From the IMG/VR virus record IMGVR_UViG_2925891887_000001: a stretch of DNA of 64,000 nt; one strand, 5' to 3'. This DNA comes from a virus (taxonomy: Duplodnaviria; Heunggongvirae; Uroviricota; Caudoviricetes). Below the pieces are notes generated by a model that ran no database searches, was not told the origin of the DNA, and worked only from the letters and a program-made list of their open reading frames with translations. Below are positions 38,086 to 56,120 of this stretch, one piece after another; the first letter of the stretch is position 1; every line of letters starts with the position of its first letter. Made by a program: the position numbers and the translations under genes.

Positions 38086-38160
38086 GATGGTGTAGCTCAG
38101 CGGTAGAGCAGTTGGCTGTTAACCAACTGGTCGGTGGTTCGAATCCACCCACCATCGCCA
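38086..38160 (+). tRNA. tRNA-Asn (anticodon GTT)
   Basis: Cloverleaf read by eye: acceptor GATGGTG/CACCATC, anticodon loop CTGTTAA, T-loop GGTTCGAATCC, encoded CCA. Confidence 0.8.
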
Positions 38161-38165
38161 ATTTA

Positions 38166-38252
38166 GGGGAGTTAGTCCGTAGAGGTAGCGGTGTAGACTG
38201 TAAATCTACTGTCATGGCGACTCGGGTGGTTCGACTCCATCACTCCCCACCA
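38166..38252 (+). tRNA. tRNA-Tyr (anticodon GTA), long variable arm
   Basis: Acceptor GGGGAGT/ACTCCCC, anticodon loop CTGTAAA, T-loop GGTTCGACTCC, encoded CCA. Confidence 0.75.
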
Positions 38253-38256
38253 AATT

Positions 38257-38332
38257 GCCGGTTTAGCTCAGTTGGTAGAGCAGTCGCTTTGTAAGCGAAT
38301 GGCCAGCGGTTCAAGTCCGTTAACCGGCACCA
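38257..38332 (+). tRNA. tRNA-Thr (anticodon TGT)
   Basis: Acceptor GCCGGTT/AACCGGC, D-arm AGCTCAGTTGGTAGAGC, anticodon loop TTTGTAA, T-loop GGTTCAAGTCC, encoded CCA. Confidence 0.75.
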
Positions 38333-38652
38333 ACACAACAGGTAAGAGCATTGGGCGAATCGGCGATACTGACCCACAAGGCCGTAAATCGATAGAGTCA
38401 GACCAGTGCTCTTACCGTTGTGAGGAAGTGCAGCTCTTTGAAGCAACCAGAAGATAAGCATCTGGCTTCACAACACAACGATAATATCATTACGGTTAAT
38501 CGTCGTTCATGTGCACAATGACTGGTCGAAAGGTAGTGATCTTACCGTTGTGATGAATGCACAGGCTGATGTGCCGCAACTACAGTAGTGCGCGCTTTGC
38601 GGGGCTTGCTACAACCCTGTGTCGGAGTTCAGCACCGACCATCACAATAGCT

Positions 38653-38739
38653 GGAGAGTAGGGAGCATGGTGCTCAAGCGGTCTTGAAAACCGTCCCATT
38701 GTGCAAACGATGATGGTTCGATTCCATTACTCTCCGCCA
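38653..38739 (+). tRNA. tRNA-Ser (anticodon TGA), long variable arm
   Basis: Acceptor GGAGAGT/ACTCTCC, anticodon loop CTTGAAA, T-loop GGTTCGATTCC, encoded CCA. Confidence 0.7.
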
Positions 38740-46490: not shown

Positions 46491-48854
46491 ATGAAGGCAC
46501 TGATGGTTCGAACTGACTTCTCACTTGGGGAGTCGGCTCTAAAAGCAGAAAACGCGGTGAAGATTGCCAGAGAAGCTGGCTACACCGCTGTAATTTCAGC
46601 AGATAGCATGAATATTGCGAGCGTTATTCCACTACAACGTGCCGCTGGTGACGACATGGCGGTTATTTGTGGTGTGAAACTAAACATTGTTGATGATCCC
46701 ACATACGAGCACCGGGCTAAACTTGCTAAAGAATCTATGAGATGTATGGAATCATTAGAGCGAGGACGTAACTACTCGTTTACCGCTCTAATTAAAAATG
46801 AGAAAGGATATCGCGACATCTGCGAACTAATGACGGCGGCCAACACACGAGAACAGTTCTACTTTGTACCGCGTCTCTCGCTCGAACAGTTGGTTTCTAC
46901 ATATGCCAAAGGCAACATCATCCTGCTTACTTCCGACATCGGTAGCGTGTTCCAACGCAACGATTTTGCAAAAATCATAAGCACACTGATTACAGCGGGT
47001 GGAAAAGACAACTTCTATAGTGTGGTTTATCCGCACCCTACCCCATTCTACGACCAGATTAACGTCCGGGCGATGAAAGTCGCCAGCGCATTGAAAATAG
47101 AGCCAGTGGCGTTCTATCCCGCTTATTACGAATCGATCGACGATGCAGACATTAAAGACATTGCGCACATGGTTACGAACAACATCAAAATCGACCAGCC
47201 GCATCGTCTGCGTATCCCCCACCAGCGAGATAACGCCGTCAATGGTCGCCGCCATCTCCTTGAGGCGCTTAAAGCCTTCTCCGTTCGCATGGATGTGCCG
47301 GTAACAGCTGCAATGGCCTCAACAACGCAGGATACCATTATCGATGCCTGCACATGGCGCTGGCATGAATTGCCGCCAGCACTGCCAAAGATGGCAGACG
47401 ACGAGCCTGCAACGCTGATGAAACTGGCTGTTGCAGGGCTGCGTAAACGTCTTACCACAAAAGAGTTTGGCTACACACCACCTGCTTCTGAGAACAGGGT
47501 TTATGTTGAGCGGCTAAAGTACGAAATGGACACGCTGACTCGCCTGGGATTCTGTGGTTACTTCCTGATGGTGCGCGATCTGATGAATCATAGTCGTGAA
47601 ACTGGCATTCCCGTTGGGCCTGGTCGTGGTTCCTCTGCCGGTTCTCTGGTGGCGTGGTGCATAGGCATAACCAACGTCGACCCAATCCGTCACGGTCTTC
47701 TGTTTGAGCGTTTCATCAACCCTGAGCGTCTCGACTTGCCGGATGCGGACTTGGACTTCAGCCAGGCACGTCGCCATGAGGTGATCGAGTATCTGAATGA
47801 ACGCTACGGCGAAGATTACGTTGCAGGCATTCCGAACTTCACCTACCTGGGCGCAGCCTCTGCACTACGTGATACCGCTCGTATTTATGGTGTGGAGTCC
47901 GCAGATATGGCGGTATCAAAAGAGCTGAAGAACGTCGAGGATGATAGCCTTCCATTGGAGGAGCTGCGCGAACAACTGGCAAGTCTCGACAAATACGCAA
48001 CAAAATATCCTGATGCATTCAATGCAGCCTGCAAGTTACAAAGCCTTATGCGTGGCTTTGGTAGACATGCGGCAGGGATGATCGTAGCAGGTGTTCCTCT
48101 GACAGAACGTACACCGGTTGAACGCCGTGGTGACGCGCGTTGTATCGCATTTGACAAGCGTTACTGCGAGGCTATGGGCCTAATTAAGCTGGACGTGCTT
48201 GGCCTGGCAACTCTCGATTTGCTCGATAGTGCAAAACGCTACATAAAAGAGAACACAGGTGAAGATATCAATCTTGATGCCATTTCTCTTGAAGATCGCA
48301 AGGTGCTGGATGGTTTTGCTGCAGGGTATACACAGGGCGTATTCCAGCTTGAATCAGGCCCAATGCGCAAGCTGCTTAAAGATTTAGGTGGTGGAATTGA
48401 GCCAATGAGCTTTAAAACGGTCGTCGCTACAACTGCGCTCTTCCGACCTGGCCCGATTCAATCCGGCATGTTGGACGATTATGTGTCCGTGGCCAAAGGC
48501 TTCATGGCCCCACATTCCTTACACCCAATGCTGGACGACATCTCTCGCGACACAAACGGAGTTCTGATTTATCAGGAACAGATCATGGCTGCTACGCGAA
48601 TCTTGGCGGGGTTCTCAATGGCGGAAGCAGACTCGGTCAGGAAAGCGATCGGGAAAAAAGATATGGAGAAAATGAAATCCATTGGCGGCGACTTCATTAA
48701 GCGAGCGGAGGAAGGCTGGGTGACAGTGTCACTGGATGATGGTTCTACGAGAAAAATCCATAAAGCAGCACGCCTACTTTGTGCTGATGGTGAGCGTCGC
48801 ACTTATGCCGAAGCAATGGCAATAAATGCCGACATAACGAGCTTCGATATTTGA
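46491..48854 (+). CDS. DNA polymerase III alpha-type (DnaE-like) replicative polymerase, N-terminal part
   Basis: Polymerase core block GRGSSAGSLVAWCIGITNVDPIRHGLLFERFINPER; ORF ends in non-conserved sequence just before the finger-domain motif. Confidence 0.75.
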   Translation: MKALMVRTDFSLGESALKAENAVKIAREAGYTAVISADSMNIASVIPLQRAAGDDMAVICGVKLNIVDDPTYEHRAKLAKESMRCMESLERGRNYSFTALIKNEKGYRDICELMTAANTREQFYFVPRLSLEQLVSTYAKGNIILLTSDIGSVFQRNDFAKIISTLITAGGKDNFYSVVYPHPTPFYDQINVRAMKVASALKIEPVAFYPAYYESIDDADIKDIAHMVTNNIKIDQPHRLRIPHQRDNAVNGRRHLLEALKAFSVRMDVPVTAAMASTTQDTIIDACTWRWHELPPALPKMADDEPATLMKLAVAGLRKRLTTKEFGYTPPASENRVYVERLKYEMDTLTRLGFCGYFLMVRDLMNHSRETGIPVGPGRGSSAGSLVAWCIGITNVDPIRHGLLFERFINPERLDLPDADLDFSQARRHEVIEYLNERYGEDYVAGIPNFTYLGAASALRDTARIYGVESADMAVSKELKNVEDDSLPLEELREQLASLDKYATKYPDAFNAACKLQSLMRGFGRHAAGMIVAGVPLTERTPVERRGDARCIAFDKRYCEAMGLIKLDVLGLATLDLLDSAKRYIKENTGEDINLDAISLEDRKVLDGFAAGYTQGVFQLESGPMRKLLKDLGGGIEPMSFKTVVATTALFRPGPIQSGMLDDYVSVAKGFMAPHSLHPMLDDISRDTNGVLIYQEQIMAATRILAGFSMAEADSVRKAIGKKDMEKMKSIGGDFIKRAEEGWVTVSLDDGSTRKIHKAARLLCADGERRTYAEAMAINADITSFDI

Positions 48855-48902
48855 GAATTAATTTATAAGATAAGAAAACAATTTGTTTAGTGAGTCTTAG
48901 AA

Positions 48903-49637
48903 ATGCCGAGTACGAAGTACAAAATCACAGAAGAATGGTTACGTCAGCGTTACATGGTTGACCTGATGAGAAAAGAAGACATTGCCGCCGAAGCTGGTTG
49001 CAGCAAGGCAAATATTGACCGCTTATTAGCCAAATGGGGGATCAGGCGCGGAAGCGCGCGGATCTCCGCTACCCCAGCCTGGAATCGTGGCAAAAACAAA
49101 AATAATGACGAACGTATGAAGCGTCTCTCCGAAGCCCGGACTGGCACTGGCAACCCTATGTATGGGAAAACCTCGTGGAATGCCGGTCTGCGTGCTGATA
49201 TCGATGAGCGAGTGGCCACCGTTTCGAAAAAGCTAACCGGCAGAACAATCCGCGCGGAGACGAAGGAAAAGCTGGCGGCTGCCAAACGCGGAAAGATCGG
49301 AGAAGAAGCGAACAACTACAAAGGTGGCATCATCGTAAAAACCAACGGCTACATGATGCAGCTGGTTGGTAACAATGGCGTTTCGCAATACGAATACGTT
49401 CATCGATTGATAGCGAAAGAACGTCTCGGTCGGGAGCTACGTGACGATGAACATGTCCACCATATTAACCGCGATACGATAGATAACGCCCCTGGGAATC
49501 TTGTAGCACTTCCAGAAGACGCCCACATTCGCCTGCATAGTGAAATGCGTGAAGAGATATGGAGCTGGGAGCGCCAACGGAACTGGCTGGCCTCCAATGG
49601 GTATGAGTTCGTGAAGATTGATGAGGTGACTGCATGA
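48903..49637 (+). CDS. HNH homing endonuclease inserted within the split DnaE gene
   Basis: HNH motif (HHINRDTIDNAPGNLVALPEDAHIRLH) and repeated basic NUMOD-like motifs (WNRGKNK, MYGKTSWNAGL). Confidence 0.75.
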   Translation: MPSTKYKITEEWLRQRYMVDLMRKEDIAAEAGCSKANIDRLLAKWGIRRGSARISATPAWNRGKNKNNDERMKRLSEARTGTGNPMYGKTSWNAGLRADIDERVATVSKKLTGRTIRAETKEKLAAAKRGKIGEEANNYKGGIIVKTNGYMMQLVGNNGVSQYEYVHRLIAKERLGRELRDDEHVHHINRDTIDNAPGNLVALPEDAHIRLHSEMREEIWSWERQRNWLASNGYEFVKIDEVTA

Positions 49638-50803
49638 AAATTACCGGTGTTGTCGAAGAGAGCAATGGCCTGACGCACGAACGAGCCGAAGAAATCTGGA
49701 ATATGTTTGAGAAATCCGGCGCGTATGCCTTCAACAAATCACACTCTGTTGCTTACTCCTTAATCAGTTATCAATCTATGTGGTTGAAAACTCATTATCC
49801 CGCAGAGTTTTTCGCTGCTGCTCTCACTATTCTTGGCGAAGATAAACACCAGGGGCTGGTTAAAGATGCGCTGACCTATGGCATTCGCGTATTGCCACCA
49901 GACGTTAACGTGTCATCTAACCGAATCGAGATCCGCACGCTTGAAGATGGCAGCCAGGTGCTGTATGCGCCCTTCTCTGCTGTGAAGGGGTGTTCTGAGA
50001 ATGGCTGCCAAGCCATCATGAGAGCGCGAGAAAAAGTTGGCGGCAAATTCGAGTCACTGGCGCAATTCGAAGAAGCTGTCGAGAAACGTGCCTGTAATAG
50101 TCGAGTGCGCGAATCGCTGCAAAAAGTAGGGGCGTTTGCATCCATCGAGCCAGGCAGTCTGCCAGCAACTGATCCAGAGCGCCTACGCGACCAGGCTGAA
50201 TTGATGGGAAACCTTGTCATAGACGCAGTTAAAGCCTCACGTCCGTTTGAGATGAACCCCAAACGTTCGGCTGAAATTAACGTACTCATGACGCGGATGG
50301 CGGCTGAAATGGGCTTAGGTGATGAACTAATCCGCCCCAGCATTGGTATTAAGCCGAAAATCATGATCATTCTGGACAATGCGAACGGCAATGATGCTCG
50401 AACCGGTTACTTTATGGAGAACGGATACGACGACTTTAAGGCCAAGCTATTGACGGCTGGAGATTTACGCATGGGCGATCTCTATGTCACAGGTGTTTGC
50501 AAGAAGGTTAAAGACAAAGAAAAAGACTACACCAAAGACGAGATCGGCCAGTTCACCGACTTTATGCGTGAAGAGATCAATCTGGTGCGTCCGACCTATG
50601 TGCTGACGTGTGGCAGCCGGGCAACTTCATTGTTTAACAACAAAAACAAGCCATCCGATTTGGTCGGCAGGAAGGAGTATCTTCCAGACCTTGACGTTAC
50701 TGTCTTTTACGGGTTTAACCCCAACATTCTTTACTTCAGACCTGAAGAGGGAGAACGACTAGAAGCGATATTAGCCGACGTAGCAGAAACTATTAAGACG
50801 TGA
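49634..50803 (+). CDS. DnaE-like polymerase, C-terminal part
   Basis: Begins with the conserved finger motif region (GAYAFNKSHSVAYSLISYQSMWLKTHYPAEF); own ATG overlapping the HNH stop. Confidence 0.75.
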   Translation: MKITGVVEESNGLTHERAEEIWNMFEKSGAYAFNKSHSVAYSLISYQSMWLKTHYPAEFFAAALTILGEDKHQGLVKDALTYGIRVLPPDVNVSSNRIEIRTLEDGSQVLYAPFSAVKGCSENGCQAIMRAREKVGGKFESLAQFEEAVEKRACNSRVRESLQKVGAFASIEPGSLPATDPERLRDQAELMGNLVIDAVKASRPFEMNPKRSAEINVLMTRMAAEMGLGDELIRPSIGIKPKIMIILDNANGNDARTGYFMENGYDDFKAKLLTAGDLRMGDLYVTGVCKKVKDKEKDYTKDEIGQFTDFMREEINLVRPTYVLTCGSRATSLFNNKNKPSDLVGRKEYLPDLDVTVFYGFNPNILYFRPEEGERLEAILADVAETIKT

Positions 50804-50905: not shown

Positions 50906-51361
50906 ATGATAAGTGATAAGGAAATGTGCATGATCGCCGATATTTACGAGAAAATAATGTCTGATCTCGAGTTTGACCGAGACAATCTGGAGGAAGTCTG
51001 GCGTAGACAACCCCGCCTTTTAATGGAGTATGGCTCAAAACTCGCTCATGCAGAAAGAAGTGTCGCAGAGGCAAAACTTAACCTTGAAGCTGTTGAAGCA
51101 AAGCTATACGACACAGAGCGTAAGAACTTGAGTATGAACGGCATTAAGTTCAACGAATCTGTACTGGACGCTAAGGTTAAAACAAACCCACAGTATCTGT
51201 CTAAAAGGCAGAAGTTGGATGAAGCACGGCACATCGCAGACATATACAAACATGCTGTCGCCGCCTTTTCGCATCGCCGAGACATGATCGTTCAGGCGTC
51301 AAAGATGGCCATCGTTGAATTAGAGCGATTAGGCTCTGAACGCTTTATTACTCCCCGTTGA
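50906..51361 (+). CDS. hypothetical protein (possible recombination mediator)
   Basis: 151-aa helical ORF immediately upstream of the SSB gene; function not supported by motif. Confidence 0.45.
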   Translation: MISDKEMCMIADIYEKIMSDLEFDRDNLEEVWRRQPRLLMEYGSKLAHAERSVAEAKLNLEAVEAKLYDTERKNLSMNGIKFNESVLDAKVKTNPQYLSKRQKLDEARHIADIYKHAVAAFSHRRDMIVQASKMAIVELERLGSERFITPR

Positions 51362-51478: not shown

Positions 51479-52507
51479 ATGTCTAAGACATTACTTGATT
51501 TGCTTAACAAAACTCGTGAAGACATTGCCGCCAAACGTGGTAACAACGTTGATCTGACTCGCTTAAAAGACGGCGTCAACTATATCCGCATCTTCCCGAA
51601 TAAAGACGACCCAAACGGTAAGTTCTTCCAGACTTTCGGTATGCACTACGTTAAGTATCAGAACGAGGAAGGTAAAGAAGCAACCAACGCTTATATTTGT
51701 GAGCAACATACTCACGGTCGCGCTTGTCAGCTATGCGAAATGGTGATGGAAGGTCGCGCTCGTCACAAGGGTAACAAAGCAATGGAAGAACGCATCGGTC
51801 AAATGCGTGCCACTCCTCGCTACCTGGTCAACGGCATTCTTTCTGCTCGTGAGGATTTCGCAGATGCTGAGAAATGCCAGTTAATCGAGCTGCCGTCTAC
51901 TGTATTCGATGATATCTGCAAAGCAATCACCGAAGACATCGCTGATGATATCGGCAATCCACTGAGCAAAGAGGAAGGCTACGCATTCCTGATTAAACGT
52001 ACTGGCTCTGGTCGCGATACCAAATATGACGTCTCGCCTAAGCGTAAAGTCTACAAAGGCGATATCGAAGATAAATTCTGGAATACCCAGCATGATCTGA
52101 TCGCATACGCAAATCAGGCTGATGAAACTCGTCTTCTGTCGACAGTTCGCACTATGGGTCGTCTGATTGGCATCGCTGCACCAACTGCCGCAGCATCTGC
52201 ACCAGCAATTTCCTCAACCGCGAAAACATCGGCTGCGGCACTACCTGGATTTGGCTCTGTCACTGGTCATACGGAGGGTGCGACTGCTGTAGCTACCGCT
52301 CATACCCCAGCTTCTGAACCAACCAGTCTGGTTGATGAAGAAATCCTCCGTGCCGTTGAAACTGAATTTAAACCAGAAGCAAGTCCCGCTGCCGTTGCAG
52401 TATCAGTCAAAGAGTCTGAAGCAGTCGCAACGACATCTGTAGCAGCCGCATCTGCGACGGAAGATGAAGGTCTGGATGACCTACTGAGAGAGCTGGACTC
52501 TCTGTAA
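51479..52507 (+). CDS. single-stranded DNA-binding protein (T4 gp32-like)
   Basis: Zn-binding His/Cys cluster (HTHGRACQLCE), Ala/Ser-rich linker and acidic C-terminal tail (EDEGLDDLLRELDSL). Confidence 0.6.
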   Translation: MSKTLLDLLNKTREDIAAKRGNNVDLTRLKDGVNYIRIFPNKDDPNGKFFQTFGMHYVKYQNEEGKEATNAYICEQHTHGRACQLCEMVMEGRARHKGNKAMEERIGQMRATPRYLVNGILSAREDFADAEKCQLIELPSTVFDDICKAITEDIADDIGNPLSKEEGYAFLIKRTGSGRDTKYDVSPKRKVYKGDIEDKFWNTQHDLIAYANQADETRLLSTVRTMGRLIGIAAPTAAASAPAISSTAKTSAAALPGFGSVTGHTEGATAVATAHTPASEPTSLVDEEILRAVETEFKPEASPAAVAVSVKESEAVATTSVAAASATEDEGLDDLLRELDSL

Positions 52508-52523
52508 TCCCATTACGTGACCA

Positions 52524-52552
52524 GTAAGGCGTCTACGGACGCCTTACTTTTT
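52524..52552 (+). terminator. Rho-independent terminator
   Basis: GTAAGGCGTC-TACG-GACGCCTTAC hairpin followed by TTTTT. Confidence 0.7.
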
Positions 52553-52567
52553 GGAAGGAATGTACCG

Positions 52568-53512
52568 GTGAATTATCTCTTCGTAGATGGCAATAGCCTG
52601 GGTTATTACCACCAACAATCTGACAAATTGCACAACGGCGAAATGGAAGTACAGGCTGCTTTCGGCTTTGTTAAGAACGTCCGTCGTTATGCCTCCATCC
52701 TCCATGCCCGACCTATGATTCTTTGGGATGGATTTAGTGACAAGCGTCGCGACTTTTACCCGGACTACAAAGCAAATCGCGACGACGATCCTGATATGAA
52801 AAAGATGAAGGAAGGCTTTGCTATCCAGAAGCCATACATCCTCAAAATGATGACCGCGCTTGGAGTTACCCAACTCATTGCAAAAGATGCAGAAGCGGAT
52901 GATCTGGCCGGGCTGCTGGTATCCCGCATGGCACCGCAGCCAACCGTTGAACACATCTATCTGTTAACAGGCGATAGCGACTGGCTTCAGTTAGTTCGTG
53001 AAAACGTAAGCTGGGTAAGCCTGCGTGAAGACGCCAAAAACAAGCAGGTTAATTTTGAGCAATTTGCGGAGCTGACAGGATTCGCTACTCCTCGCGCATT
53101 TTTGGAAGCAAAAGCATTACAAGGCGATAAATCGGACAACATTAGCGGTGTTGGTGGCATTGGTGCTGGCGGTGCGAAAGAGCTGCTGCATGAATGGGGA
53201 AGTGTCGCAACGATGGTACGCGGCATCAACGACGGCTCAATCGTGGTTGACAAAGGACGCCATAAGACCGCCTTCAACAAACTAGCGAAGAATGCCTTCA
53301 ACGAGAAAACAGGCTGTCGAATGCTCGAAGCGTTCAAGAGAAACATCACGCTAATGAACCTGATTGAGACGAAGTTTCCGCCTACCGAAATCGAAACAAT
53401 CAAAGGCAATCGTGACGTGAAAGCATTCGAGCAACTGTGCTACGAGCTGAATTTCCGTTCGTTCCTTGAAGACCTTGAAGTGTATGTTCTTCCATTCGAA
53501 AGGTATTGCTAA
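52568..53512 (+). CDS. 5'-3' exonuclease/flap endonuclease (RNase H-like)
   Basis: N-terminal LFVDGNSLGYY and H3TH-type glycine-rich segment (GDKSDNISGVGGIGAGGAKELL); GTG start after GGAAGGA placed downstream of the terminator. Confidence 0.75.
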   Translation: MNYLFVDGNSLGYYHQQSDKLHNGEMEVQAAFGFVKNVRRYASILHARPMILWDGFSDKRRDFYPDYKANRDDDPDMKKMKEGFAIQKPYILKMMTALGVTQLIAKDAEADDLAGLLVSRMAPQPTVEHIYLLTGDSDWLQLVRENVSWVSLREDAKNKQVNFEQFAELTGFATPRAFLEAKALQGDKSDNISGVGGIGAGGAKELLHEWGSVATMVRGINDGSIVVDKGRHKTAFNKLAKNAFNEKTGCRMLEAFKRNITLMNLIETKFPPTEIETIKGNRDVKAFEQLCYELNFRSFLEDLEVYVLPFERYC

Positions 53513-53778
53513 TGCTTAAATCAATTATTAATGGCGCTACAACCACCCCTGCCCAACTGGCAAAAGAGATTGTCTTTTATCACGGTGAGTACGCTGTCAT
53601 CGCACTGCCGTCAATTCTAGGCGCTGCCGGAATGAAAGCGACAGATCGCGAGTTTGGATTAGTCAGCGAGCAGGTCGTAAAAATCCTCGCTCGTGTATCC
53701 AGACTCCTTAACCACGATGCGATTGTATTCGATGAATCCGCCGCTTTAAAACGAATCAACGAAACAAAAGGAGCCTGA
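53506..53778 (+). CDS. hypothetical protein
   Basis: 90-aa ORF between the exonuclease and recA. Confidence 0.45.
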   Translation: MLMLKSIINGATTTPAQLAKEIVFYHGEYAVIALPSILGAAGMKATDREFGLVSEQVVKILARVSRLLNHDAIVFDESAALKRINETKGA

Positions 53779-53780
53779 TC

Positions 53781-56120
53781 ATGGCAAAAGGAAAATCCGC
53801 ACTGGCACTTGCTCTGAAAAAGAAAATCGGTAGCAACGACGAAATTCAGAAAGTAACTCATTGGATTGATACAGGCTTTCCACCGTTAAACAAAGCTATT
53901 TCTGGTCGTTACGATGGCGGCTTCCCATGTGGTCGTATCGTCGAAGTATTCGGTCCTCCAAGTGCAGGGAAATGTGTTACCGCAGACACCATGCTGCTGA
54001 CGGAGCGTGGAATGGTAACAGTGAAAGAGTTGTTTGAGATTGAAGGGTACAAAGCGACATGCACTACTCGCGATGTAGAGCATAACGTTGGACTCATCAA
54101 TGAAAATGGCGTGATAGAGAAGACCTCACACCTGACATGGAACAACCGTCGCAAATTCAAGCGTATTAAGCTGGCATCAGGCGGTTATATCGAGGCTACG
54201 TTCCGTCACCCAATCCGTGTGGTTGACGACTTAGGTAATGTCGTCTGGCGACATGCTGAAAAAATCAGTGTAGGCGACACGATTCCTTCAATGGTTGGCA
54301 CACATCAATTCGGCGATCAGCACCTGGATGCCAATATCGCAAAACTGATGGGCTATTTAATTGCTGACGGATACGTCGCCTCTGAAAATTCAGTGAATTT
54401 TTCTAACACAGATCCTTTCATCAAGGATGAGTACTACCGCCTCATTTCGCTGGTATCAGACAAGATGCCAGTTACGAGAAAACATAACGGCTCGGAAGAC
54501 CATGTGCTGTTTAGCAAAGAGGTGCGTTCGCTGCTTTTTAAAGAATATGGTCTGGAGTATGAGAAAGCTGCTGGCAAGCAGGTTCCGTTGAGTGTGCGTC
54601 GCGCCAATAGCGAGGCTCAAATTGCATTCCTTCGCGGCTACTTTGAGCTGGAATGCCACGTCAATGATGGTCGCTGCATTGAGGTTGTGAGCGCGAGTGG
54701 GCTGCTGCTACAGCAAATTCGCCTCATGCTCCTGAATCTGGGGATTACGTCAACTATCTCTGAAAAACACGTCGCGGGTTATGAAAATACATATTACCGG
54801 CTGTCATTCAGTGGCTCTAATTACGACCTTTTTCTGTCAACGATTGGTTTCGAATCTCCGGCACGTTTATCAGTGGCAACCAAACGGGACATTGGTTTTG
54901 ACCGCACTTACTCAGGCTATGTTCCGCACATCAGCGGCTTAGTGAAATCACTCTACGAGTCGCTCACCAAGACCACCCGTGAAGACTACGCTCTGGTAGA
55001 CCACGTTATTGGCCGCGGCGATCGTGTCGGAATAGACAAACTGCGAGAAATCTATGTCTCCTTCATTGGCAGAAAGAATCGTTTTAACGAGCATCTGTTT
55101 GCACAACTGGCAGCGGTAATTGGCTCTAACTTGTTCTACGACGAAGTCGTGGCTATTGAGGAAGGTGAAGCACCAACGTTCGACGTAGCGATGCCGGAAA
55201 CACACTCTTTCTGGTCTAACGGGATTATCAGCCACAACACATTCCTTGCAACAGCAGCGATGATCTCCGCTCAAAAACAAGATGGTCTGGCGGTATTCCT
55301 CGATCATGAAAACAGTTTTGACGTTGGCCTGGCTGTAGCCAATGGCCTGAACGCAGATGAGGATGACGGTCAGTGGGTCTACAAACAGCCGGATACCTTC
55401 GAAGACTCCGTAGAGCTGATCGGCACAATCCTCAAGCTGGTGCGCGACGAAGAGCTTATTCCGGAAACAGCCCCTATCTGCATCGTAGCCGACTCTCTGG
55501 CGTCGATGGTTCCGAACTCGAAGGCTGAGAAGTTCGACAAGATGGCAGAAGGCACTGCGAAAGACAAAGATCAGCTGAACATGAACGACAACACGGCGCT
55601 GGCGCGCGCGACAAGTGCGAACTTCCCTACTCTGGCGCTTTGGGCGCGTAAGTACAACGCGTGCATCATCTTCTTGAACCAGGTGCGTACCAAAATTGGT
55701 GTGATGTTTGGCGATCCGACTACGTCTCCGGGTGGCGACTCTCCGAAGTTCTACGCTTCTGTACGTATCCGTCTTGGTGCATCGGTGATGAAGGATGGTA
55801 AAGAGAAGATCGGCCAGGACGTAGGCGCAGAATGCATCAAAAACAAAGTTGCACCACCGTATGGCAAATGCACCTGGAAATTCTACTTCGATCCTACTCG
55901 TGGCCTCGACGTTATCGAATCGCTCGTCGAGTACATGCTGGAAGAAGGATACCTGCCAAAGAACGCCAGCGGGCGAGTTGAAATTGGTGACAAGAAATAC
56001 ACCAAATCGCAGATCGTCGAGATGTATCGGGAGAAGCCACTGGCTGAAATCATTGCGGCTTTGCAGGCAATCGACGACCGAAGAGCAAAAGACAACCCCA
56101 CCGAGTCAGTAGAAGAGTAA
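53781..56120 (+). CDS. recA: RecA recombinase precursor containing an intein
   Basis: Exteins (64 + 293 aa) align to bacterial RecA (GRIVEVFGPPSAGK | TFLATAA..., IIFLNQVRTKIGVMFGDPTTSPGG, KFYASVRIRLG); intein residues begin with Cys and end HN before Thr. Confidence 0.85.
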   Translation: MAKGKSALALALKKKIGSNDEIQKVTHWIDTGFPPLNKAISGRYDGGFPCGRIVEVFGPPSAGKCVTADTMLLTERGMVTVKELFEIEGYKATCTTRDVEHNVGLINENGVIEKTSHLTWNNRRKFKRIKLASGGYIEATFRHPIRVVDDLGNVVWRHAEKISVGDTIPSMVGTHQFGDQHLDANIAKLMGYLIADGYVASENSVNFSNTDPFIKDEYYRLISLVSDKMPVTRKHNGSEDHVLFSKEVRSLLFKEYGLEYEKAAGKQVPLSVRRANSEAQIAFLRGYFELECHVNDGRCIEVVSASGLLLQQIRLMLLNLGITSTISEKHVAGYENTYYRLSFSGSNYDLFLSTIGFESPARLSVATKRDIGFDRTYSGYVPHISGLVKSLYESLTKTTREDYALVDHVIGRGDRVGIDKLREIYVSFIGRKNRFNEHLFAQLAAVIGSNLFYDEVVAIEEGEAPTFDVAMPETHSFWSNGIISHNTFLATAAMISAQKQDGLAVFLDHENSFDVGLAVANGLNADEDDGQWVYKQPDTFEDSVELIGTILKLVRDEELIPETAPICIVADSLASMVPNSKAEKFDKMAEGTAKDKDQLNMNDNTALARATSANFPTLALWARKYNACIIFLNQVRTKIGVMFGDPTTSPGGDSPKFYASVRIRLGASVMKDGKEKIGQDVGAECIKNKVAPPYGKCTWKFYFDPTRGLDVIESLVEYMLEEGYLPKNASGRVEIGDKKYTKSQIVEMYREKPLAEIIAALQAIDDRRAKDNPTESVEE
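53973..55238 (+). mobile_element. intein (422 aa) with LAGLIDADG homing endonuclease domain, inserted in the RecA Walker A motif between K and T
   Basis: In-frame element CVTADTMLL...IISHN followed by +1 Thr; LAGLIDADG-like motifs LMGYLIADGYV and FLRGYFELECHV. Confidence 0.8.

Follow-up and report, generated by a model that had tools for sequence, protein, structure and literature searches.

A P-loop intein in a RecA-type recombinase of SSU5-like phage-plasmids, probably the published c2 element

Organization of the locus

The window analysed here, a stretch of 64,000 nucleotides from a tailed-phage record (IMGVR_UViG_2925891887_000001), carries at 53781..56120 an open reading frame for a RecA::intein precursor of 779 amino acids plus stop (about 86.5 kDa). 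This and all other features given below lie on the + strand. The precursor matches phrog_9666 over its full length, and an exact-sequence look-up showed that the protein is already public (e.g., AXG20746.1). Upstream lie a FEN-type 5'-3' exonuclease (52517..53512; Pfam 5_3_exonuc_N and 5_3_exonuc) and, in the same recombination module, a gp32-like single-strand DNA-binding protein (51479..52507; Pfam gp32, E=1.7e-66), which is annotated as 'SSB T4 gp32-like' in phage Cyrano. By its position and the annotation of phage Cyrano, the reading frame at 50906..51361 is a candidate 'UvsY recombination mediator'; it returned no Pfam match and corresponds to phrog_2058, a family of unknown function. A group I intron behind the neighbouring split dnaE was also considered and rejected, as the Rfam search returned no intron and the HNH reading frame starts just 48 nt after the first reading frame stops.

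The recombinase is encoded in two parts. The N-extein (aa 1-64, 53781..53972) ends with the Walker A fragment GPPSAGK and aligns to E. coli RecA ...GRIVEIYGPESSGK, and the C-extein (aa 487-779 plus stop, 55239..56120) begins with the Thr+1 of GK/T (the slash marks the insertion point here and below) and aligns to the E. coli RecA structures 3cmu/3cmt. The C-extein contains the Walker B-like motif ICIVADS and the L2 region NQVRTKIGVMFGDPTTSPGG. Pfam RecA (PF00154) was found in two stretches flanking the insert (E=4e-36; 125.2 bits against a gathering threshold of 27), and Walker A, Walker B and L2 motifs are all present. The original prediction had called the protein a bacterial-type RecA, which holds in part. 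Bacterial RecA structures (E about 1e-26) are closer to the extein than T4 UvsX (6e-5); however, the spliced extein scored below the cut-off of the NCBIfam bacterial recA equivalog TIGR02012 (153.6 vs 325.3), and the gene is borne by plasmids and phages. The extein also matches phrog_97, 'UvsX-like recombinase' (E=1e-83). Judged by these matches, the recombinase is a divergent phage-type RecA of plasmids and phages. Removal of the insert would leave a product of 357 aa (39.0 kDa) that differs by 2 aa from the RecA of phage CMS-2020a, and a free intein of 47.5 kDa, in agreement with the sizes of about 39 and 47 kDa foreseen earlier.

Structure of the intein

The 422-aa insert (aa 65-486, 53973..55238) has the architecture of a Hint splicing domain into which a LAGLIDADG homing endonuclease is set, as indicated by Pfam, NCBIfam, an AlphaFold2 (AF2) model, Foldseek and alignment to empty-site alleles. 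The original prediction of an in-frame element beginning with Cys, ending with His-Asn and followed by Thr was borne out at every position. Cys65 (block A, codon at 53973..53975) is the predicted nucleophile of the first splicing step, block B reads T-F-R-H (intein T76..H79, protein T140..H143; 54198..54209) and lies inside the Pfam Intein_splicing and TIGR01445 matches, and blocks F and G (PTFDVAMPETHSFWSNGIISHN, 55173..55238) close with H485 and N486, ahead of T487 at the +1 position. The P/T/D/V/P/T/S/F columns of blocks F and G are nearly invariant among relatives. Domain scores were above threshold for Intein_splicing (E=2e-11; 44.3 vs 35.8) and for intein_Nterm (TIGR01445; 34.9 vs a cut-off of 24.5).

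Both of the LAGLIDADG-like motifs that had been noticed were found again, each as a helix with a terminal acidic residue. Motif 1 (LMGYLIADGYV, aa 189-199, 54345..54377) corresponds to helix 120-131 of the model and offers intein D132, in LMGYLIADG, as candidate catalytic Asp. Motif 2 (FLRGYFELECHV, aa 283-294, 54627..54662) lies within the Pfam LAGLIDADG_3 match over aa 279-356 (E=2e-17; 63.4 vs a threshold of 22.5) and offers E227, in FLRGYFELEC, as candidate catalytic Glu; both were assigned by motif alignment. Motif 2 is non-canonical, reading ELEC instead of D-G, so that endonuclease activity is not readable from the sequence alone. ELEC is, however, the majority residue in the consensus of distant same-site relatives. 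A homology search with the intein as query returned 13 proteins, with same-site relatives but not the full-length cluster among them.

The AF2 model of the intein (pLDDT 79.8, pTM 0.83; last 7 residues of low confidence) matches solved inteins and mini-inteins in Foldseek, as expected for a Hint fold, with the TliVMA intein 7qss (E=2.5e-19), PI-PfuI, PI-PkoII and PI-SceI as top matches. The pseudo-dimeric alpha-beta-beta-alpha-beta-beta-alpha core was likewise recovered in matches to PI-PfuI, PI-PkoII, TliVMA and I-DmoI. At the level of sequence and modelled fold, the insert is thus confirmed as a self-splicing-type intein with full-size Hint and LAGLIDADG domains, rather than a chance pattern.

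Insertion point and empty sites

The intein separates Lys64 from Thr487 within the Walker A motif, GPPSAGK/T. The intein-less proteins of phage CMS-2020a (357 aa) and Salmonella phage SSU5 (358 aa) align to the reading frame with a single clean gap of 422 residues exactly at K/T, which bears out the placement originally given, between the Lys and Thr of GxxxxGK-T (K64/C65 and N486/T487). The possibility that the insert is an ordinary RecA domain, singled out earlier as the alignment result that would overturn the proposal, is ruled out by these empty-site alleles together with the Pfam and fold evidence.

The base-level DNA comparison covered 6 alleles with the intein and 2 without it. It was made segment by segment; when entire genes were aligned with MAFFT, intein-less rows had their N-extein placed inside the intein, and these rows were discarded. 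At the occupied, presumed homing site, the upstream half reads GGGAAA (53967..53972) and is invariant in 6/6 intein-containing alleles, and the downstream half is ACATTCCT (55239..55246). The Thr+1 codon is ACA in all intein-containing alleles compared, and ACG or ACC in intein-less ones. In CMS-2020a the empty junction reads …GGTCCTCCAAGTGCAGGGAAA/ACGTTCCTTGCAACAGCAGCG…, and the DNA of the window's N-extein is identical to this intein-less allele at 192/192 nt. Overall, between -192 and +140 the window allele departs from CMS-2020a at a single base, the third of the Thr+1 codon.

Prior description and distribution

The original prediction rightly held that this is not one of the classical mycobacterial RecA sites, as it differs from site a (M. 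tuberculosis, aa 252) and site b (M. leprae, aa 206). The possible novelty of the site, which had been left unconfirmed, did not stand. Topilina et al. (2015, NAR 43:6631, PMC4513877) list in their Table 1 the RecA insertion point "c2 (65-486)" in E. coli, Enterobacter and Salmonella, and the GPPSAGK/C...HN/T boundaries in the window have identical coordinates. In that scheme, c2 is the bacterial name of RecA/RadA insertion point c; Thermobifida fusca RecA (96-517) has its intein at the same point, and the P-loop inteins of archaeal RadA, at the same position, are named c1 (PMC4513877). The plasmid allele of E. coli MS 145-7, a strain in the set of Topilina et al., also encodes 779 aa, shares these boundaries and deviates from the window protein at 2 residues. 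Nothing structural separates the two elements, both of 422 aa at coordinates 65-486 and at P-loop K/T. The intein in the window is therefore very probably the published RecA c2 intein, a full-size class-1 element in the P-loop of an SSU5-like phage-plasmid recombinase of E. coli. It is an already known intein, published in 2015 and present in hundreds of public plasmid records. The NCBI pipeline labels such proteins either 'LAGLIDADG family homing endonuclease' or 'intein-containing recombinase RecA'.

The present analysis adds two points to the published description: the replicon, which is a phage-plasmid and not the chromosome, and the contrast in synonymous divergence between intein and exteins described below. 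The gene in the window is 100% identical to that on SSU5-like phage-plasmids of E. coli, and among complete E. coli genomes it was placed 250 times on plasmids and 0 times on a chromosome, leaving only SSU5-like phage-plasmids and phages as carriers. This corrects the impression of an intein in E. coli RecA proper, as the carrier is the recombinase of a mobile element. The intein is present in 239 of the 566 PLSDB plasmids carrying this recA, and in 113/248 E. coli genomes. Our literature search found no published experiment on this intein and no paper stating the phage-plasmid context or the homing dynamics of the 'first E. coli intein'; searches for inteins with SSU5 or pHCM2 returned nothing relevant, and those with phage-plasmids brought up engineered toxin-inteins or unrelated phages only.

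Selection and mobility

Omega values, based on 13-14 amino-acid changes, indicate purifying selection within the intein: about 0.07 for the splicing domain and about 0.2 for the endonuclease. These values bear on whether the gene is functional at all. With the host cell owning a separate RecA, a non-splicing intein could persist, as a selfish insert or a passenger, in a gene that the element can do without, and decaying copies do exist, one with an IS-sized insertion and another truncated. The product name assigned by PGAP, often only 'LAGLIDADG family homing endonuclease', also fits such a reading. However, every complete allele examined has an intact reading frame of 779-781 aa, 236 PLSDB plasmids gave full-length matches, the residues needed for splicing are all retained, the splicing domain has the low omega just given, and residue-level alignment to E. 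coli RecA structures shows that the exteins of intein-containing alleles retain every RecA motif. We consider a functionally dead gene highly improbable.

The divergence of the intein is far below that of its exteins. For the same allele pairs, dS is 0.003-0.10 in the intein and 0.24 to >2 in the exteins. Identity across Escherichia, Klebsiella, Enterobacter and Cronobacter amounts to 96.8-99.9% for the intein and 79-95% for the exteins. This contrast suggests recent homing across genera. Low intein divergence could also come from ordinary recombination between co-resident phage-plasmids, without an endonuclease. A splicing-competent intein with a dead endonuclease would then account for both the polymorphism and the low divergence, in line with the non-canonical ELEC of motif 2 and the visibly mosaic replicons (the window's N-extein equals that of CMS-2020a, yet its C-extein has a dS of 0.31). 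We regard this as unlikely. The endonuclease domain is under the purifying selection noted above, ELEC prevails among the same-site relatives, and the intein occurs in at least five genera at ≥97% identity. Further, the flank common to the alleles is just 6-8 nt, which points to repair of a precisely placed break more than to generic recombination.

A bolder proposal can be made: that the 'first E. coli intein' is a phage-plasmid intein which is actively homing now, that in Escherichia, Klebsiella, Enterobacter, Citrobacter and Cronobacter it is sweeping through the SSU5-like phage-plasmids and co-converting only a few bases at a time, and that the Yersinia and Salmonella lineages have not, or barely, been reached. 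We give this proposal an even chance. If true, co-resident phage-plasmids would offer a natural, tractable system to watch intein invasion in enterobacteria.

Proposed splicing and homing

From the intact motifs we infer that the precursor splices. Before splicing, the 86.5-kDa protein would be unable to bind ATP, because GPPSAGK and its Thr lie 422 residues apart. The reaction would begin with an N-S acyl shift at Cys65, assisted by T140/H143, after which the thioester would be handed to the hydroxyl of Thr487. Cyclisation of Asn486, aided by His485 and the block F Asp, followed by an O-N shift would create the K64-T487 peptide bond, yielding the 39-kDa recombinase with an intact GPPSAGKT and the free 47.5-kDa intein. 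The latter may be active as a monomeric LAGLIDADG endonuclease that, in a cell containing two related phage-plasmids, would cleave recA alleles lacking the intein across ...GGGAAA/ACNTTCCT..., and recombinational repair off the intein-containing allele would copy the intein in, with few flanking bases co-converted. Homing we infer from population genetics, namely the dS contrast, the near-isogenic pair of alleles with and without the intein, and the patchy occupancy.

The discovery value is small, since the 2015 paper already gave the element with its site and coordinates. The practical value lies in a full-size, apparently intact and recently mobile intein in a mesophilic, genetically tractable host, the phage-plasmids of E. 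coli. Together with natural intein-less sister alleles, such a host makes splicing, homing and conditional control directly testable in the native context; such tests are harder with the hyperthermophilic RadA or mycobacterial RecA inteins.

Comparison with known inteins

The RadA c1 inteins of Pyrococcus horikoshii (Pho) and Thermococcus are also class-1, also interrupt the recombinase where the Walker A P-loop ends and also have Thr at +1. Their splicing domains are structurally similar to that of the window intein (4e2t, Foldseek E about 1e-4). However, the Pho and Tsib RadA elements are archaeal, chromosomal mini-inteins without an endonuclease, in contrast to the full-size intein of the window, and their sequences are unrelated, which has been judged in the literature to reflect independent invasion. 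Temperature-gated splicing has been demonstrated for these archaeal inteins, whereas splicing of the window intein is a prediction.

By analogy with the proposal made for the Pho RadA intein, redox-, temperature- or stress-sensitive splicing might gate the phage-plasmid recombinase, giving the element a role beyond selfishness. The shared P-loop position and the Cys1 nucleophile would fit such a switch, as would the precursor models of Topilina et al. (PMC4513877), in which the E. coli RecA intein is unlike Pho RadA and a precursor-specific adaptation is suggested. Nevertheless, the intein is absent from roughly half of otherwise similar phage-plasmids and is therefore not required; being far younger than the exteins, it has also had little time to co-adapt with them. 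A conditional switch thus appears improbable.

PI-MtuI of M. tuberculosis RecA (site a) and the M. leprae RecA intein (site b) are likewise LAGLIDADG inteins in RecA that make recombinase activity dependent on splicing, as is predicted for the window intein. However, their insertion points (aa 252 and aa 206) map to the interface between monomers (PMC4513877) and not to the P-loop. The intein lineages differ too, the splicing domain of Mtu RecA matching the model only weakly in structure (E about 2e-3). The score against the mycobacterial-type family NF007072, 'intein-containing recombinase RecA', is also far below its cut-off (100.7 vs 1024); insertion point and score exclude sites a and b and this family as the identity of the element.

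Same-site inteins in the RecA-like recombinases of Herelleviridae phages (e.g., Bacillus phage fHSPT3) are 31-34% identical over the full 422 aa. The fHSPT3 intein also directly follows the P-loop GK (GKPGGGK/C...NHN/S). These elements differ from the window intein in having Ser instead of Thr at +1, virulent phages of Gram-positive bacteria as hosts and divergent exteins. Related inteins occur in the helicases of Twort-like and Listeria phages. Finally, TliVMA (7qss), PI-PfuI (1dq3), PI-PkoII (2cw7) and PI-SceI (1vde) share the same architecture of Hint plus pseudo-dimeric LAGLIDADG domains (Foldseek E 2.5e-19 to 1e-8, TM up to 0.68), but are only 9-22% identical to the window intein and reside in V-ATPase, RNR and DNA polymerase.

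Gene Structure and Evidence for an Intein

The ORF at 53781..56120 (+) encodes 779 aa and contains, as originally predicted, RecA exteins around a 422-aa in-frame element (53973-55238, +) that begins with Cys (C65), ends with His-Asn (H485-N486) and is followed by Thr (T487). The junctions in the sequence read ...GRIVEVFGPPSAGK64/C65VTADTMLLT ... SNGIISH485N486/T487FLATAAM.... Pfam places RecA (E=4e-36) in two stretches either side of the insert, which itself matches LAGLIDADG_3 (aa 279-356, E=2e-17) and Intein_splicing (aa 73-486, E=2e-11), and the score for the NCBIfam intein N-terminal model exceeds its cut-off. In a PDB sequence search, aa 29-66 and 487-731 aligned with RecA structures of E. 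coli and other bacteria, the break falling exactly at E. coli ...GPESSGK/T..., and the middle of the protein matched V-ATPase inteins and PI-PkoII.

The strongest evidence that the insert is an intein comes from natural intein-less alleles. The same gene lacks the insert in Escherichia phage CMS-2020a (357 aa) and Salmonella phage SSU5 (358 aa), and protein alignment against both leaves a single, clean gap of 422 residues that separates K from T, in keeping with the claimed insertion between Lys and Thr of Walker A. Computed removal of the 422 aa yields a 357-aa product of 39.0 kDa with Walker A GPPSAGKT intact, which differs from CMS-2020a RecA at just 2 positions, and an excised intein of 47.5 kDa; about 39 and 47 kDa had been anticipated. 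The observation is confirmed and its interpretation as an intein supported.

Inspection of the sequence revealed the full set of canonical intein blocks, all on the + strand: block A at Cys1 (C65, from which intein residues are numbered), block B at T76-x-x-H79 (protein T140/H143), block C LMGYLIADGYV, block E FLRGYFELECHV, and blocks F and G, PTFDVAMPETHSFW and SNGIISHN, followed by Thr+1. Blocks C and E correspond to the two LAGLIDADG-like motifs of the original prediction, and motif alignment makes D132 (block C) and E227 (block E) candidate catalytic acidic residues. The best structural matches of an AlphaFold2 model of the intein (10-sequence alignment; pLDDT 79.8, pTM 0.83) are full-size endonuclease-containing inteins, headed by TliVMA (7qss, E=2.5e-19, TM 0.68) and including PI-PfuI, PI-PkoII and PI-SceI. 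Pho RadA and Mtu RecA are among the mini-inteins that match its splicing domain, and I-DmoI matches its endonuclease core.

From the complete class-1 residue set, we infer that the RecA intein undergoes protein splicing. Cys65 would undergo an N-S acyl shift, followed by trans-esterification onto Thr487, cyclisation of Asn486 and an O-N shift that would restore GPPSAGK-T. With its P-loop split by the intein, the unspliced protein would be expected to lack ATPase activity, which would make recombinase function dependent on splicing, as the original prediction also held.

Host Recombinase and Replicon

Copies 100% identical to the gene lie on plasmids of two E. coli strains, 22AR0322 (NZ_CP195468.1, 109 kb) and 205; those in two Escherichia phages, PhiR41_1 and Cyrano, are 96-97% identical and that in a Klebsiella phage is 90% identical. 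The carriers are SSU5-like phage-plasmids. Among 5,426 complete E. coli genomes, 248 carry the gene (113 of them with the intein), on a plasmid in every case and with no chromosomal copy. The extein scores above the Pfam RecA threshold and also matches the PHROG 'UvsX-like recombinase', and it falls below the NCBIfam bacterial recA equivalog TIGR02012 (153.6 vs a cut-off of 325.3) and the mycobacterial-type NF007072. The most fitting description of the recombinase is a divergent RecA carried by phages.

Its neighbourhood is a phage-type replication and recombination module comprising a DnaE-like polymerase, a small ORF (putative UvsY per the Cyrano annotation), a gp32-like SSB, a FEN-type 5'-3' exonuclease and a 90-aa ORF preceding recA, with an SPFH protein and a Rep protein beyond it. 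The conserved 90-aa ORF (53506-53778, +; phrog_2207) stops 2 nt before the recA ATG, and the small putative UvsY ORF, likewise conserved and 151 aa long (50906-51361, +; phrog_2058), lies at the position of Cyrano's annotated 'UvsY recombination mediator'; a Pfam search gave no family for either. Elsewhere, the window holds a tRNA cluster at 38086-38739 (+), Asn-GTT, Tyr-GTA, Thr-TGT and Ser-TGA, counted as four by ARAGORN and three by Rfam.

The DnaE-like DNA polymerase III alpha gene (46491-50803, +) is itself split into two ORFs, one of 787 aa with PHP, NTPase and finger domains (46491..48854, +) and one of 389 aa with HHH_6 and the C-terminus (49634..50803, +). Between them lies a free-standing 244-aa HNH endonuclease gene (48903..49637, +; HNH_3 plus NUMOD3), whose stop codon overlaps the second ORF's ATG. 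CMS-2020a has a single uninterrupted 1,168-aa ORF, and Cyrano, PhiR41_1 and SSU5 likewise lack the HNH insert. About 100 aa on each side of the break are far more divergent than the remainder, Rfam identified no intron at the split, and just 24 PLSDB plasmids carry the HNH gene. It appears to be the module's second and rarer homing element, and the split polymerase may function as two polypeptides.

Distribution and Proposed Homing of the Intein

A PLSDB search with the gene matched 566 plasmids, 236 of them at full length, and one with the intein alone matched 247, of which 239 were nearly full-length. Occupancy, expressed as intein over gene matches with megablast denominators that are lower bounds, is 122/228 in Escherichia, 71/94 in Klebsiella, 41/91 in Enterobacter, 6/25 in Citrobacter, 1/44 in Salmonella and 0/63 in Yersinia. 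The identical protein is already public (e.g., AXG20746.1) on 168 contigs, and its 90%-identity cluster has 1,496 members; PGAP names such proteins 'LAGLIDADG family homing endonuclease', 'hint domain-containing protein' or 'intein-containing recombinase RecA'.

Some copies are damaged. The one on E. coli plasmid p2 (CP059946.1) is decaying: a 771-bp, IS-sized insertion with an 8-bp target duplication interrupts the intein coding sequence (gene positions 616-623), and the gene has no annotated CDS. The most divergent intein seen (94% identity), on a 62-kb Escherichia albertii plasmid that is a shortened derivative (CP043255.1), is probably part of a remnant; homology stops at gene nucleotide 1771, the C-extein is truncated and the gene carries no annotation. 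Two E. coli plasmids, NZ_CP075717.1 (query nucleotides 683-1266) and CP057895.1 (1024-1266), retain just a 3' portion of the intein, presumably as rearrangement remnants.

Population genetics points to intein homing. Compared with five intein-containing alleles (phage Cyrano and plasmids of E. coli, Klebsiella, Enterobacter and Cronobacter), DNA identity is 96.8-99.9% in the intein versus 78.6-95.3% in the flanking exteins, and synonymous divergence is 0.003-0.10 versus 0.24 to >2. The intein flanks common to all six alleles are limited to GGGAAA on the upstream side and ACATTCCT on the downstream side, and the Thr+1 codon is ACG or ACC in intein-less alleles. This low divergence and these minimal common flanks suggest that the intein is much younger than its host alleles and was transferred among them with co-conversion of very little flanking DNA. 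Omega is ~0.07 in the splicing domain and ~0.2 in the endonuclease domain (13-14 substitutions; indicative only), values consistent with upkeep of both activities.

The window allele is identical to that of CMS-2020a from -192 to +140, bar the third base of the Thr+1 codon. The N-extein (53781-53972) matches at 192/192 nt, and the C-extein (55239-56120) agrees over its first 140 nt except at position +3, diverging thereafter (overall dS 0.31). This pattern indicates a mosaic recA gene with a recombination breakpoint ~140 nt downstream of the intein site.

Relation to Known Inteins

The element is already known, so the tentative suggestion that the intein was novel fails. A survey of RadA/RecA inteins by Topilina, Novikova, Stanger, Banavali and Belfort (NAR 2015; PMC4513877) distinguished five points of insertion (a to e), with c at the end of the P-loop and termed c1 in archaeal RadA or c2 in bacterial RecA. 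In Table 1 of that survey, 'c2 (65-486)' is given for eight E. coli strains, Enterobacter cloacae BWH 29, Enterobacter sp. MGH 26 and Salmonella enterica 557928, and a c2 intein of likewise 422 aa (96-517) in Thermobifida fusca. The now complete genome of one of these strains, E. coli MS 145-7, carries a 779-aa plasmid gene with C65 and HN486/T as in the window, its protein differing only by T563S and D586E.

Topilina et al. (PMC4513877) do not mention phage anywhere, and a literature search found no splicing or cleavage experiment for the RecA c2 intein and nothing relevant on the intein with SSU5-like phage-plasmids. That the carrier is a phage-plasmid recombinase, not E. coli RecA proper, appears unstated in searchable papers, as does the distinct signature of recent inter-genus spread; both are modest additions to the known c2 intein.

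P-loops are a recognised hot-spot for inteins. Relatives at the same site, with 28-45% identity, are found in further RecA proteins of genomic and metagenomic origin (GK/C...SHN/T) and in a RecA-like protein of Bacillus phage fHSPT3 (GGGK/C...NHN/S), and related inteins also reside in helicases of Twort-like and Listeria phages.
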